The notes below the pieces were generated by a model. That model saw only the letters and a program-made list of their open reading frames with translations, had not been told where the DNA came from and ran no database searches. Of a stretch of DNA of 64,000 nt, positions 24,524-29,559 are shown piece by piece. A program made the translations under genes and the position numbers. The stretch spans positions 2,800,769-2,864,768 of the forward strand of contig OZ244713.1 of the NCBI GenBank assembly GCA_965218885.1, in the 5' to 3' direction. Source of the stretch: a bacterium (GTDB lineage: Bacteria > UBA8248). Numbering within the stretch: the first letter of the stretch is position 1; every line of letters begins with the position of its first letter.

Positions 24524-25066
24524 ATGTTCTACATGAAAGAACTGCCTAACGAGGAAGATTTCAGGCCCCTCGTGCCGGAGTATTCCTCTCTGGATACTTC
24601 CTCGGTCATGCTTTTTTATCTTTTTTTGCAGGTCGGCAGCGATATGCTCACCGTTTTTGAAACGTACCTGGCCGATCATGGCGTATCGCAGGGCAGGTTT
24701 ATCGTTTTATTGTTGTTGCTGCGCTCCCAGGTGAGGAACAACGGCTCGGGCCTCAGCCCATCGGAGTTGGCCAGACAAGCGGGTGTGACGCGCGCGACGA
24801 TGACCGGGTTGATGAAGGGACTTCAGCGCGATGGGCTCATCGAGCGTTTCAGCCACGATGGCGATAGAAGGAAAGTCATCGTTCGTCTCACATCAAAAGG
24901 AAAAAAGAGCCTGAATTCCATTTTTCCAGACTATTATTCGCGCATCGCGGAACTCATGAATGATTTGGAGGACGAGGAAAGAGAGAAATTATCCATGCTC
25001 CTCCATAAAGTGAAAAATAAAATGTATTCATCAAAACAAGCGCCGGCCGCCGGCGCCCAAGGATGA
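24524..25066 (+). CDS. MarR family transcriptional regulator
   Basis: LSPSELARQAGVTRATMTGLMKGLQRDGLIER, DRRKVIVRLT. Confidence 0.92.
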   Translation: MFYMKELPNEEDFRPLVPEYSSLDTSSVMLFYLFLQVGSDMLTVFETYLADHGVSQGRFIVLLLLLRSQVRNNGSGLSPSELARQAGVTRATMTGLMKGLQRDGLIERFSHDGDRRKVIVRLTSKGKKSLNSIFPDYYSRIAELMNDLEDEEREKLSMLLHKVKNKMYSSKQAPAAGAQG

Positions 25067-25127
25067 AGAATATCTTTGCTCGGATGCTTGAAGGAGCAAA
25101 TCCCTGTCGAGGAAGGAGAATACGGCG

Positions 25128-26372
25128 ATGGCGAAACCCAAAGTAATTATCCAGCTATACCCCATGCTGCCTGCGGAAAACCGGGAGGAGCGCGAGCAGA
25201 AAAGGCCTTTGGCCAGGGACAAGGATTTGTACCATCACGTGCTTCACGAATGGGTCGACATCGTGAAGGCCGCCGATGAGATGGGCGTATGGGGCATCAG
25301 CACAATCGAGCACCATCTGCATTCGGAGGGCTATGAAGTGGGGCCCAATCCGGGCGTTCTCAACGCATGGTGGGCCGCTCAGGTGAAAAACGCGAGAGTG
25401 GGCGCGCTCGGTTACGTTATGGCGACGCAGGATCCGATTCGCGTGGCCGAGGAAACGGCCATACTCGACCACATCACCAAGGGGAAGTTCTTCTGCGGCG
25501 TGGCGCGGGGGTATCAGTCCAGGTGGGCGAACATCCTGGGTCAATTCAGCGACACCCGGGCCACCGTCTCCACCGACTTGGGCGGGGCCGATGACGTGAA
25601 GAACCGCGACATCTTCGAAGAGCGCGTCGAGATGCTTCTTAAATTCTGGCAAGAAGATTCGGTGGAGGTGAAAGGAGCGCATTACGAGATTCCCTATCCC
25701 TATGAGGATGGAATCGATTATCCGGCCTGGAGGAGCGCCCGGGACGCCGGCGCAATCGGCGAGGTCGGCGATGACAATCGGGTGCGAAGGGTGAGCGTTG
25801 TTCCCAAGCCTTACCAAGAGCCTTATCCACCCATGTTTCAAGCCGTGAGCGCGAGCCCTGATTCCATAAAATTCGCCGCGAGAAATGGGTTCCGGCCCGT
25901 GTATTTCACCAAGCTGGAAAAGATGGAGGAATTCTCCCACCTCTACGTGGAGGAAGCGGCCAAGGCGGGCCACAACTTCGCCCATGGTGAGCGGCAATGC
26001 GTTTGCCGGTGGATTCATGTAACGGAAACCGAAGAAGAGTACGACGAGAAACTCAGGAAATACGATCAGGATATCTACCAGAACTTCTACGTGCCCTTCT
26101 TCCCCCAGTTCCCGGACGACACGGAAAGCATCGACTGGATCCAGAACATCAAGGAAAGCGGAATTTTCCTGGGAGGTACGGTAGATACGCTCAAGCGGGA
26201 GTGGGAGGAAACGTACGAAAAAGTGCCTTCGGAGTTCATCACCCTGATCTGGCACTACGCGCAATGCCCCAAGGAAGAAGTCATTTATGAGCTGGAAACG
26301 TTTATGACGAAAGTGTGGCCCGACCTGGAGTGCCCGGTGTCGAACGGCGTTACGGTCGGCGGCGTCGCCTGA
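25128..26372 (+). CDS. LLM-class flavin-dependent oxidoreductase (luciferase-like monooxygenase)
   Basis: AADEMG..STIEHHLHSEG, DPIRVAEETAILDHITKGK, GVARGYQ, PKPYQEPYPP. Confidence 0.9.
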   Translation: MAKPKVIIQLYPMLPAENREEREQKRPLARDKDLYHHVLHEWVDIVKAADEMGVWGISTIEHHLHSEGYEVGPNPGVLNAWWAAQVKNARVGALGYVMATQDPIRVAEETAILDHITKGKFFCGVARGYQSRWANILGQFSDTRATVSTDLGGADDVKNRDIFEERVEMLLKFWQEDSVEVKGAHYEIPYPYEDGIDYPAWRSARDAGAIGEVGDDNRVRRVSVVPKPYQEPYPPMFQAVSASPDSIKFAARNGFRPVYFTKLEKMEEFSHLYVEEAAKAGHNFAHGERQCVCRWIHVTETEEEYDEKLRKYDQDIYQNFYVPFFPQFPDDTESIDWIQNIKESGIFLGGTVDTLKREWEETYEKVPSEFITLIWHYAQCPKEEVIYELETFMTKVWPDLECPVSNGVTVGGVA

Positions 26373-26389
26373 CCTTTTTCTTGATGAGG

Positions 26390-26420
26390 AAGCCCCCGCA
26401 TCGGTATACCGGGGGCTTTC
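26390..26420 (+). terminator. Intrinsic terminator-like hairpin after the LLM gene
   Basis: AAGCCCCCG...CGGGGGCTT followed by TC. Confidence 0.55.
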
Positions 26421-26444
26421 TGAATCGTTTTCGAGGAGATAAGC

Positions 26445-27158
26445 ATGTATGAAATCATCGATCTGAGCCAGGAGATTTATACCGGCGCGCCCAGGTTTCC
26501 CGGGCATCCGGCGACGACGATCGAGTACGTCGCCAGGCACGAAGACGCGGCCAACGCGCCGATCAGACCGAAGGACATCACGTACGCGGCCATGATGCTC
26601 CACATGTGCGACCACGGGCCGACGCATACCGATTCAGTGAGCCACATCGATGAACGCGAAACGGCACCGAACATCGATCAGGCGCCGCTCGAGTGGTTCA
26701 TCACCCGGGCGATTGCGCTGGACTTCACGGGCAAGGTGGAGCCGATGGAGGAGATATCCTTGCAGTTGCTGCAGGATGAGCTTTCGGCGGCGAACCTCAC
26801 ACCCCCCAGGGACGGCACGCTTCTCTTCACGGGCGGGCATTTCAAGCGCACCTATCCGGCGGACGACTACCTCACGACCTACCCGGGCCTGGGGTATGAC
26901 GCCGCGGATTTCCTCTATCGTGAATGCGGCGTGGTGAACATCGGACAGGATGCGCCCAGCATCGACGCCGGCGTGAACACCACGGAACTGACGTTTCCCT
27001 GTCATGTGCTTTGCCGGGAACTCCAGCGCCACAACACGGAAAATCTGGCGAATATCGAAGCGGTGGCGGGGAAGGAATTTCTCTACGTGGGGCTCCCCCT
27101 CAAGATTCGCGCAGGCACGGGCTCTCCCGTGCGCGCCGTCGCCGTGATGAACCTTTGA
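26445..27158 (+). CDS. Cyclase family metallohydrolase (kynurenine formamidase-like)
   Basis: IIDLSQEI, HGPTHTDSVSH (HxGTHxD-like), GQDAPSID, ENLANI, PLKIRAGTGSPVRAVA. Confidence 0.88.
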   Translation: MYEIIDLSQEIYTGAPRFPGHPATTIEYVARHEDAANAPIRPKDITYAAMMLHMCDHGPTHTDSVSHIDERETAPNIDQAPLEWFITRAIALDFTGKVEPMEEISLQLLQDELSAANLTPPRDGTLLFTGGHFKRTYPADDYLTTYPGLGYDAADFLYRECGVVNIGQDAPSIDAGVNTTELTFPCHVLCRELQRHNTENLANIEAVAGKEFLYVGLPLKIRAGTGSPVRAVAVMNL

Positions 27159-27282
27159 GCAAACGGTGGCATTCTCGCCTTCATCATGAGTCTGTTGAGG
27201 GCGAGAAACTCTCGAATCATTTTGCCGCCATCATGGTTGTTCCAACGAGAGGGATTCTCGTTTCGTGAGGAGATTCAGGATT

Positions 27283-27633
27283 ATGCCGAAGACAGTGGAT
27301 TGGTATTATCATCGCTCCGGCTGAAAGACTTGCGCTAAAACGCAAGCGTTTCTTGCGGAGAACGGTATCGGGGTGTCCGAGCAGGCCAGCTCCAAAAAAG
27401 ACGTGGTGGATGAAGGCAACGTCGATTCTGTTCTGGATGGCGTGGCGGATGTGTATTCGACCAGGGGCAGAAAGGTGATCCACCTGAACATCGAAGAAGA
27501 AAAACCTGCGCGAGAAGACGTGCTGGCTCTTTTGATGGGTCGTTCAGGCACGCTCAGAGCCCCTGTCATCAAATATCAAAGCACCCTCATCGTCGGCTTC
27601 GATGAAGAAACATACGCACAGGTTTTGAAATAA
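27283..27633 (+). CDS. ArsC/Spx-like thioredoxin-fold selenoprotein (UxxC), 116 aa
   Basis: ATG 27283 with SD GAGGAG/AGGA gives MPKTVDWYYHRSG-[TGA 27322-27324]-KTC-AKTQAFLAE, in frame with the 27373..27633 fragment (GRSGTLRAP..LIVGF, ArsC-like). Hairpins follow the UGA. Confidence 0.85.
27325..27364 (+). promoter_or_regulatory. Putative bacterial SECIS for the ArsC-like gene
   Basis: After the UGA: CTTGCG-CTAAAA-CGCAAG, or alternatively CGTT(T)CT-TGCGG-AGAACG with a bulged U and G in the loop about 30-34 nt downstream. Confidence 0.5.
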
Positions 27634-27648
27634 ATCGTATCCGGTGAC

Positions 27649-29103
27649 TTAGAGGGCCAACTGGCCCTGGGTGGGTTCCGCTCAGCAAAACCACGATTCG
27701 GTCAAACGAGGCGGGCGGATTCGATCGGGCGCGAAGGCGGCCTTTGCCTGCGCCTGATCGGGACGCTCCAGAATATCGGCCGCCAATTCGCGAATCCTCA
27801 TGAATGTTGTGGCGGCATCCTCGAGGCGCGTTGCTGCATCCTCGGCGAGGAGGAGCGCTTCTTCGTGCAGTTTGTCCATTCTCGCGTCCGGATGCTCCCA
27901 GCGGTAGATGAAATTCTCGGCGTCGAGTTCCTTGATGTATCTCGTCATGTGGGGGGAGTCGAGCAAATGGGAACCCGGCGGCGCCAGAAGCCGGATGGCC
28001 ATCTGAATGGGGTCCACCTCGTCGATCAATGTGTATTCTTCAATGAAATCCAGTAGATAGAAATAATCCTGCGCGCTTGTCCAAGGCGTGAATGCGACCA
28101 GAGATGGTCTGATGGAAACATTCGCCTCCCGGGCGGCTTTCACCACACGAAAGACATCTTCTTTGGTGTGTCCCTTATCCAGATGAGCGAGCACGAGGTC
28201 GCTCAAGGACTCCATCGCTGTGACGAAAAACGCGCACCCGTTTTCCCGGAATTCAGGCAGAAGAGCCTCATGTTTGATCAGGTGCTCTACTTTGGCCGTA
28301 AAATCGAAGGAAAGGGCGGGGAATCTCTCGTGTAAGGCGCGAGCGACTCGAATCGCATGAGACGGGCCATTCAGAAAATCCGGGTCCGCAAAGGTGATGT
28401 GGCGCGCGCCTTGCGCGGCCAGATCTTCGATATCCTCCAGAACCTTCTCTTGGGGCACGATGAAGAAACGGCCTTCATACACTGGCGGAATGGGGCAATG
28501 CAGGCACAAGTGTTTGCAGCCCCGGCTCGCCTCGACGGCCCCGGCGGGATAGTGGTTCTCCCCGCTTATGAGATGCGCGTATGCCTGAAGCGCAGGCAAT
28601 CCCTCTCGCTCGGGCTTGAGCAAGGGAATTTTTTCGAGATACGGGCCCGATGTGTGCTCTCTCGTGGCTGCGCCGGGAACCTCAAGGATGCCGGAGGGTC
28701 GGGACAGCTCTTGAACGAGCTTCACGAGCGGCCATTCGAACTCGCCACCTATGGCCGAATCCGCGCCGTTTTCGAGAAGATAGTCCTTGTTGAGCAGACC
28801 ATAGAGGCCATAAAAGCAAATATGGCACTTCGGATTCGTCTCACGTATTTTCGCCGCCACTTCTACGCCGAGCCTGAGCGCCGTGTGCATCGGCACGCTG
28901 ATGCCGACGAATTTCGCATTCGCTATTTTCTCTTGGGAGAAATCCTCCGCCGCCACGTCCATCGCCCAGGGCTGAAAGCCCGCTTCGCGCAGAAAAGCCA
29001 GGGGCGAGGCGACGGCGAGGGGCTGGTGTCCCAACTCGTAGCAGGAGATGAGAACGACGGCGCCGGGTGATTGCCACTTGGATGTCTTATCGTTTCGACT
29101 CAC
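27649..29103 (-). CDS. CUAEP-tail radical SAM selenoprotein with N-terminal B12-binding-like domain, 484 aa
   Basis: EASRGCKHLCLHC (CxxxCxxC). The frame continues past TGA 27684-27682 as ESWFC-U-AEPTQGQLAL-TAA (27651-27649). SECIS-like hairpin downstream of the UGA. Confidence 0.88.
27653..27668 (-). promoter_or_regulatory. Putative bacterial SECIS for the radical SAM gene
   Basis: AGGGCC-AGTT-GGCCCT starts 14 nt after the UGA; loop GU at +21/+22, comparable to the E. coli fdhF-type SECIS geometry. Confidence 0.7.
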
Positions 29104-29125: not shown

Positions 29126-29158
29126 AAAAAAAGCCCCGGACTTATGACGCCCGGGGCT
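29126..29158 (-). terminator. Intrinsic terminator after iscA
   Basis: Minus strand AGCCCCGG-N11-CCGGGGCT followed by a T tract. Confidence 0.75.
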
Positions 29159-29175
29159 CGTAAGGCATTGTTTCA

Positions 29176-29559
29176 TCAAGTGGTGAAAGATTTGCCGCAA
29201 CCGCACATGCTCATGGCGTTGGGGTTGTTGATCTTGAAGCCCGAGCCCTGCAGGCCATCGACGAAATCGATTTCCGTTCCCGCGATGACGGGATAGCTCT
29301 GGGGGTCCACGAACACGTCGAACCCATTGGCGGAGAATACCTTATCCTCCGGATTGGCGGATTCCTCGAAATAAAGACCATAGTTGTAACCGGAGCATCC
29401 ACCGGCGGTGACGGCCAGGCGCAGGCCGTAGCCGGTTTTTCCTTCCGACTCGAGAATCTCGGCCACCTTGCCGTTGGCTGTCGGCGTAACCGTAATGCCT
29501 TTAAGTGCTTGCGGTTTCTTTTGAGATTGATCGAATAAATTGATCGTTCCATCCGTCAT
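29176..29559 (-). CDS. A-type Fe-S cluster carrier (IscA/HesB/ErpA family)
   Basis: LRLAVTAGGCSGYNY, IDFVDGLQGSGFKINNPN, CGCGKSF. Confidence 0.95.
   Translation of the reverse strand: MTDGTINLFDQSQKKPQALKGITVTPTANGKVAEILESEGKTGYGLRLAVTAGGCSGYNYGLYFEESANPEDKVFSANGFDVFVDPQSYPVIAGTEIDFVDGLQGSGFKINNPNAMSMCGCGKSFTT

Follow-up and report, generated by a model that had tools for sequence, protein, structure and literature searches.

A CUAEP-tail radical SAM gene with a predicted Cys-Sec pair and a minimal SECIS-type hairpin in a bacterial contig

Radical S-adenosylmethionine (SAM) proteins that end in a CUAEP or CCAEP tail, where U stands for selenocysteine (Sec), were named as a family in a 2022 preprint by Haft, among the few selenoproteins with a CU motif (10.1101/2022.07.06.499078). 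The same preprint describes the structure and function of the family as ‘not well known’ and reports that CU motifs are rare, occurring otherwise in proteins that handle mercury (Hg) and organometals. Here we describe a gene of this family at positions 27649..29103 (minus strand) of a 64,000-nucleotide stretch of bacterial DNA (GTDB lineage Bacteria; UBA8248; assembly GCA_965218885.1, contig OZ244713.1, positions 2,800,769 to 2,864,768 of the forward strand), referred to below as the window, to which all coordinates belong unless a relative is named. The gene is an ordinary Sec-form member of the family; the original prediction, made from the letters of the window, was right to call it a selenoprotein, a call that was already catalogued. 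What keeps it of interest is the chemistry of its very widespread, ArsL-like family, whose sole studied relative forms C-As bonds. To the existing description we add a quantified, covarying minimal Sec insertion sequence (SECIS), a tail that appears to be constrained by it, a list of conserved cysteines beyond those of ArsL, and a gene context of L-amino-acid ligase, Nfu and DUF169.

By sequence comparison, ArsL appears to be the nearest characterized relative and the only close one among those characterized. ArsL has the canonical CxxxCxxC motif, yet cleaves SAM to methylthioadenosine (MTA) and a 3-amino-3-carboxypropyl (ACP) fragment, which is joined to As(III) (10.1101/2024.02.01.577332; 10.64898/2026.04.29.721666). 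Its RCCLKC tail binds As(III) through all three Cys residues (10.64898/2026.04.29.721666), and is needed for the product with its C-As bond but not for SAM cleavage (10.1101/2024.02.01.577332; 10.64898/2026.04.29.721666). ArsL proteins have just six conserved Cys residues, three at the cluster and three in the tail (10.64898/2026.04.29.721666). The Cys-rich tail and the C-As bond of ArsL had been invoked in the original prediction, and both statements agree with these reports.

Family assignment and the in-frame UGA codon

Translation of positions 27640-29103 (minus strand) with TGA read as Sec yields a 484-residue protein that starts at a GTG codon (29103) and ends in ...PPRLTESWFC-U-AEPTQGQLAL before a TAA stop (27649-27651, minus strand), so that the predicted continuation of the frame from ESWFC through the TGA into AEPTQGQLAL-TAA is indeed present. 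The in-frame UGA (27682..27684, minus strand) directly follows Cys473 and aligns with a TGA, TGC or TGT codon in relatives. It is very probably read as Sec474 through a minimal SECIS hairpin, which would give this member of NCBIfam family NF040546 a vicinal Cys473-Sec474 pair with ten residues after it. The residues that follow (AEPTQGQLAL; 27652..27681, minus strand) match the C-AEPT-x-x-Q-(L/F) tail of Cys-form homologues and are absent from ordinary gene calls; the listed open reading frame (ORF) from GTG 29103 ends at the TGA and has 473 amino acids (aa).

A hidden Markov model (HMM) search with the full-length protein placed it in NF040546, ‘CUAEP/CCAEP-tail radical SAM (seleno)protein’, with 659.3 bits (E = 3e-198) against a curated cut-off of 500 bits; residues 16-483 align to positions 1-467 of the 468 in the model. 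Pfam Radical_SAM (PF04055) matches residues 191-330 with 51.6 bits and contains the cluster motif C196-x3-C200-x2-C203 (CKHLCLHC; 28495..28518, minus strand), whose three cysteines are invariant in 118 family members. The C-(U/C)-A-E-P motif that defines the family is found here as ...ESWFC-U-AEPTQGQLAL and in Cys homologues as WFCCAEPT. The second-best NCBIfam model is that of ArsL (NF040542), whose 304.2 bits fall under its cut-off of 450 and whose alignment is confined to residues 17-423, and the third-best reaches 48 bits. The gene thus shares with NF040546 the full-length match, the CxxxCxxC core, the WFC-(U/C)-AEPT tail, the alternation of Sec and Cys, and truncation in databases at the Cys. 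Both the existence of the family and the membership of this gene, as originally proposed, are supported by the HMM score and by the family’s naming in the Haft preprint (10.1101/2022.07.06.499078). Since curation already covers the family together with its Sec/Cys tail, and several NCBI records carry the CUAEP/CCAEP name, the recoding itself is not new. The family is very large, amounting to 8,000 or more clusters at 90% identity; a search of 5.8 billion proteins gave at least 8,000 matches, all but one of those listed having E <1e-20.

Database copies of the closest relatives (75-100% identity) all end at ...ESWFC (Cys473), while records of more distant relatives either end at the Cys or run on as ...WFCCAEPT.xQ(F/L)... 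Public calls for this protein and its nearest relatives therefore lose the Sec and the conserved AEPT tail, and reading through the TGA restores both to a gene truncated in those calls. The same public calls, finishing at Cys473, would also fit a true stop at the TGA, with the hairpin and the AEPTQGQLAL frame being fortuitous or the hairpin being a shared terminator. We consider a true stop very unlikely on the comparison of relatives given here and in the next section.

Relatives’ loci were collected by a scan of one genome per species, which gave 80 loci (L001-L080). The PRLTExWFC motif could be located in 74 of them, and codon counts and the tree use those 74. The codon after this motif is TGA in 52 loci and TGC or TGT in the other 22, and AEPT-x-x-Q stands in frame after it in TGA and Cys loci alike, so that the codon is flanked by a conserved PPRLTExWFC before and AEPT.xQ after. 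A true stop is at odds with an in-frame AEPT-x-x-Q after TGA in 52 loci that matches the Cys forms. The original prediction had asked whether homologues stop at the Cys with no conserved AEP; those of the Cys form continue as ...WFCCAEPT.xQ(F/L). Its proposal that the UGA encodes Sec, giving a vicinal Cys-Sec pair, accordingly gains support from the Sec/Cys alignment in 74 loci and from a SECIS-type hairpin specific to TGA forms.

A maximum-likelihood tree of the 74 proteins, which span about a dozen phylum labels, requires at least eight changes between Sec and Cys, at least four of them forced by strongly supported branches; the two residues have been interchangeable at the tail over evolution. 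The Sec form is in the majority in Nitrospinota, Tectomicrobia, Rokubacteria/Methylomirabilota, Planctomycetota, Poribacteria, Acidobacteriota, Gemmatimonadota and part of Chloroflexota, and the Cys form prevails in Nitrospirota. The window protein falls in a fully supported clade of four metagenome-assembled genomes (MAGs), itself nested in a supported clade of seven that includes one Nitrospinota and one Tectomicrobia MAG, which are its nearest labeled relatives. Cultured strains carrying the gene are available for both forms, namely Thermosporothrix hazakensis ATCC BAA-1881 (Sec) and Thermogemmatispora carboxidivorans PM5 (Cys).

A SECIS-type hairpin in the tail codons

Downstream of the UGA the RNA reads GCGGAACCCACCC-AGGGCC-AGUU-GGCCCU-C-UAA, in which AGGGCC and GGCCCU form a perfect 6-bp stem (27653..27668, minus strand) that starts 13 nt after the UGA, lies in the last sense codons and abuts the TAA. 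The G and U of the loop are 21 and 22 nt after the UGA (positions 24/25 when the U of UGA is counted as 1). The hairpin resembles the SECIS of Escherichia coli fdhF in that it starts 12-13 nt after the UGA and has a G and U, about 21-22 nt downstream, within its small apical loop; compared with fdhF, its stem of 6-7 bp is much shorter, and the loop has 4-5 nt. The fdhF-like geometry that had been proposed therefore holds for the hairpin, its spacing and the loop GU at +21/+22, but not for the bulged U, which the stem lacks. A hairpin of this kind would recruit SelB with Sec-tRNA.

Several observations on the window by itself speak against Sec decoding. Besides the missing bulged U, a single-sequence fold of 51 nt has z = +0.27, with 120 of 200 shuffles folding at least as well, a result that a true stop would equally predict; the local DNA is 55-60% G+C, where a lone hairpin is unremarkable. 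The 64-kb window also contains no tRNA-Sec (a tRNA-Leu is the only tRNA) and no SelB or SelD motif. Because the single-copy hairpin is not significant, the case rests on the comparison of relatives.

For this comparison, the stem was measured as contiguous Watson-Crick or GU pairs flanking the conserved CAGUU, with the distance to the codon kept constant. Stems of at least 5 pairs occur in 47 of 51 TGA loci (median 6) as against 1 of 22 Cys loci (median 1), 21 of the latter having 2 pairs or fewer (Fisher p = 2e-13, for loci that are related and not phylogenetically independent). The loop is found in two registers, 4-nt AGUU or 5-nt AGUUN, and CAGUU is nearly invariant. Among 34 stem sequence variants, two-sided compensatory changes are seen at 5 of 7 positions, with CG, UA or GC at pair 2, GC or AU at pairs 3-5, and AU, GC or CG at pair 6. 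Covariation together with TGA specificity is the pattern by which comparative analysis usually recognizes bacterial selenoprotein genes. Under the true-stop alternative, a hairpin that keeps a fixed distance from the TGA whatever the downstream gene, covaries, and is missing from all Cys forms but one would be hard to account for. A role as a shared terminator of the two convergent genes at this locus was considered and rejected, since the hairpin has no T-run, is unlisted by a terminator scan, and tracks the TGA irrespective of what lies downstream.

Because the SECIS stem consists of codons, the tail amino acids co-vary with stem pairing (EGQLAL, EGQLDP, RDQFGP), and tails of Cys forms are freer. 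The predicted RNA structure is in this way a constraint on the protein sequence of the tail. The one Cys-form exception, in Thermogemmatispora carboxidivorans PM5 (L057:7390-7429), has a TGT codon and retains an 8-bp stem at the SECIS position, which suggests that Cys replaced Sec there recently.

Sec decoding is further favored by another, independent selenoprotein gene 50 bp away (27283-27633, plus strand), which has a conserved hairpin of its own. Its 116-aa product is a predicted ArsC-family selenoprotein that reads MPKTVDWYYHRSG-U-KTC..., with Sec14 in a U-K-T-C motif that is CxxC in Cys forms. It scores 119.8 bits against a cut-off of 85 with NF041106, ‘ArsC family (seleno)protein’, and 2.4e-8 with Pfam ArsC. 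The TGA for Sec14 (27322-27324, plus strand) is conserved in five relatives, and a hairpin CGCAAG-CGUUU-CUUGCG (27341-27357, plus strand) is conserved with variation. The standard ORF list begins this gene only at 27373. It is convergent with the radical SAM gene and ends 15 bp from the stop codon of the latter.

The Cys-Sec tail in comparison with ArsL

An AlphaFold2 model of the window protein (mean predicted local distance difference test (pLDDT) 91, predicted template modeling score (pTM) 0.90) suggests that the N-terminal domain is Rossmann-like, that the core holds the CxxxCxxC [4Fe-4S]/SAM site, and that the C-terminal region is helical and ends in the tail. The N-terminal segment with Cys21 and Cys93-x-x-Cys96 (28813..29043, minus strand) is assigned as a Rossmann-like, B12-binding-like domain on Cys conservation, fold and a sub-threshold Pfam match (B12-binding, PF02310, residues 17-128, 22.8 bits against a gathering score of 32.1). 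The model’s fold neighbors are AprD4, TsrM, OxsB, MgmA and MiaB (template modeling (TM) score 0.55-0.69); AprD4, TsrM and OxsB reach 0.60-0.69, MiaB 0.58-0.63, and AprD4 is the best at 0.65. As to kinship with the cobalamin-dependent (class B) radical SAM enzymes, the domain match is below threshold, and the fold resembles TsrM and OxsB as well as AprD4, which uses no cobalamin. The Protein Data Bank (PDB) holds no close solved structure, the best match by sequence being 9ccb (E = 3e-11), and no ArsL structure in the version searched. The same domain layout, the CxxxCxxC motif and a Cys-rich C-terminal tail with a vicinal dithiol-type pair are shared with ArsL. In contrast to the six conserved cysteines of ArsL, the CUAEP/CCAEP family has additional ones, with C21 conserved in 99%, C93 in 90%, C96 in 99% and C290 in 95% of 118 members. 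C290 (codon 28234-28236, minus strand) lies outside the cluster motif and the tail, and the model places C21 and C93-x-x-C96 where strands of the Rossmann-like domain end; these three could form a third metal or cluster site.

One possible mechanism, and on the analogy with ArsL the most likely one, is that the tail holds a heteroatom for ArsL-like carbon-heteroatom bond formation; we advance it tentatively. The mobile Cys-Sec tail would capture a soft heteroatom, which might be a metalloid or else a chalcogen (such as Se or S, as a selenotrisulfide or persulfide), and would present it to a SAM-derived carbon fragment at the cluster, where a carbon-heteroatom bond would form. The product is proposed to be a non-proteinogenic amino acid because an L-amino-acid ligase (ATP-grasp_4 and LAL_C2, BacD-like) adjoins the family gene in 33 of the 80 loci; in many other phyla the product would be passed to this adjacent ligase. 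Sec in place of Cys would offer sharper nucleophilicity and soft-atom affinity. The soft-atom reading is favored by the occurrence of CU motifs in Hg- and organometal-handling proteins. The original proposal, in which a soft metalloid or metal would be bound by the Cys-Sec tail, is an analogy, if a plausible one. The explanation of the locus as a whole, as distinct from this mechanistic part, we regard as probable.

Similar vicinal chalcogen pairs on flexible C-terminal segments are found in the GCUG tail of thioredoxin reductase (TrxR), the C-terminal Cys-Cys of MerA, and the CU motifs of HgcA and SAO proteins. The likeness is one of motif and position only, and folds and catalytic cores are unrelated. 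Arms of this kind can carry electrons, or a soft metal, into an active site that is buried.

A broader hypothesis, to which we give rather low credence, is that the CUAEP/CCAEP proteins are a second and far wider ArsL-like class. They would transfer ACP onto a tail-held soft atom (Se, S or a metalloid), and in many phyla the adjacent ligase would turn the resulting unknown heteroatom amino acid into a dipeptide. A cluster at C21/C93/C96 might assist, and in the window’s Nitrospinota/Tectomicrobia-like lineage the ArsC-fold selenoprotein with its UxxC motif might serve as dedicated loader or reductant of the tail.

Several points weigh against an ArsL-like mechanism. The protein scores below the ArsL cut-off, and its tail is FC-U-AEPTQGQLAL and not RCCLKC. 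That tail offers two chalcogen ligands against the three As-binding Cys of ArsL, and it lies about 50 residues beyond the ArsL-alignable region; because the ArsL model aligns to residues 17-423 only, the two tails are not homologous in sequence. ArsL is partnered by arsM and arsQ, whereas genes of the CUAEP/CCAEP family usually accompany an L-amino-acid ligase, Nfu/IscA and DUF169. Neither arsM nor arsQ, nor any other metalloid or arsenic-resistance gene, is found near the window gene; methyltransferases and permeases are likewise missing within about 5 kb, and a tblastn search of the 64-kb window found no L-amino-acid ligase or DUF169, YggX being absent as well. A literature search found no characterized member of NF040546, its sole mention being the Haft preprint (10.1101/2022.07.06.499078). 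Finally, the extra cysteines (C21, C93, C96, C290) and the Nfu/IscA/YggX neighbors fit an auxiliary-cluster enzyme equally well.

The tail could instead act in redox chemistry, with Cys473-Sec474 as a swinging arm (selenenylsulfide/selenolthiol) or as an H-atom donor that quenches a product radical, and with the ArsC/Spx-fold UxxC neighbor re-reducing it. Precedents exist in the Gly-Cys-Sec-Gly tails of mammalian TrxR-type enzymes and in Cys H-atom donors of radical SAM enzymes. The vicinal pair is at a flexible C-terminus, the pLDDT of the last 14 residues falling to 52-62, and the thioredoxin-fold neighbor is kept beside the gene in five relatives. ArsL, as the closest characterized relative, uses its Cys tail for substrate binding and not for redox, however; the ArsC-like partner is limited to one lineage and unlinked elsewhere, and the two genes are not co-transcribed because they are convergent. 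We therefore hold a redox or H-donor arm to be unlikely, and rank it next after the ArsL-like mechanism.

An auxiliary-cluster enzyme is the third candidate, at a similarly low level of probability. In it, Cys21 and Cys93-x-x-Cys96 would bind a second Fe-S cluster as in the N-terminal domain of MiaB/RimO, and the Cys-Sec tail would ligate its open iron or deliver S or Se; the cluster might be consumed and rebuilt by Nfu, IscA or YggX. The conservation of C21, C93 and C96, in contrast to the six Cys of ArsL, argues for it, as does the placing of MiaB among the structural neighbors. So do the neighboring genes: an Nfu/IscA-type carrier adjoins the family gene in 26 of 80 loci and a YggX-like protein in 5 of 80, and an IscA is present in the window. 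MiaB and RimO models, on the other hand, score only 19-25 bits, where the cut-offs are about 250-357, and align to the cluster motif alone, and Fe-S carriers beside an Fe-S enzyme may just mean cluster supply.

Neighboring genes in the window and in relatives

The radical SAM gene is surrounded in the window by genes for IscA, ClpB, the ArsC-like selenoprotein, a cyclase, an LLM oxidoreductase and MarR. An IscA/ErpA-type Fe-S carrier (29176..29559, minus strand; TIGR00049, 120 bits against a cut-off of 58.8) lies upstream on the same strand. In the commonest NF040546 context, by contrast, the family gene adjoins the ligase or DUF169 (the latter in 15 of 80 loci), where the window has IscA upstream and the ArsC-like selenoprotein downstream. 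The recurrent cluster is found in other phyla at L008, L017, L019, L022, L027, L032, L033, L040, L042, L053 and others. At Blastocatellia loci the family gene also stands beside a large membrane protein of about 445 aa.

The two selenoproteins and IscA might together be a dedicated selenium-dependent metalloid-processing system in the window’s lineage, which we find quite doubtful. The three genes are adjacent in the window, L001, L002 and L004, with the ArsC-radical SAM pair also in L003 and L005, and the two selenoproteins, one of the ArsC fold family, are arranged tail to tail. The ArsC-like gene nevertheless converges on the radical SAM gene, and the genes that run in its own direction form a MarR/LLM-oxidoreductase/cyclase block that is unrelated; the motif of its product is a Spx-like UxxC and not the single Cys of arsenate reductases. 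Moreover, a strong hairpin that resembles a terminator (29131-29159, minus strand; 11 pairs, including 8 G-C, ahead of a T-run) stands between iscA and the radical SAM gene, and the adjacency is confined to one clade. A family-wide linkage of ArsC and radical SAM genes was also examined and rejected: the pairing is found only in the window and L001-L005, and three distant NF041106 members have unrelated neighbors.

The terminator-like hairpin leaves only about 25 nt to the GTG at 29103, for which read-through or an overlapping promoter are options. The MarR regulator, the LLM-class flavin oxidoreductase (414 aa) and the cyclase/arylformamidase-like protein (237 aa) are encoded at 24524-27158 (plus strand), upstream of and co-directional with the ArsC-like gene, and L001-L003 show synteny for the block. 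Long antisense shadow ORFs overlap real genes at 25155-26627 (minus strand), 27217-27572 (minus strand) and 28357-29070 (plus strand). One of them, of 490 aa, lies opposite the 414-aa LLM gene, and a naive longest-ORF caller would choose such antisense ORFs in G+C-rich DNA.

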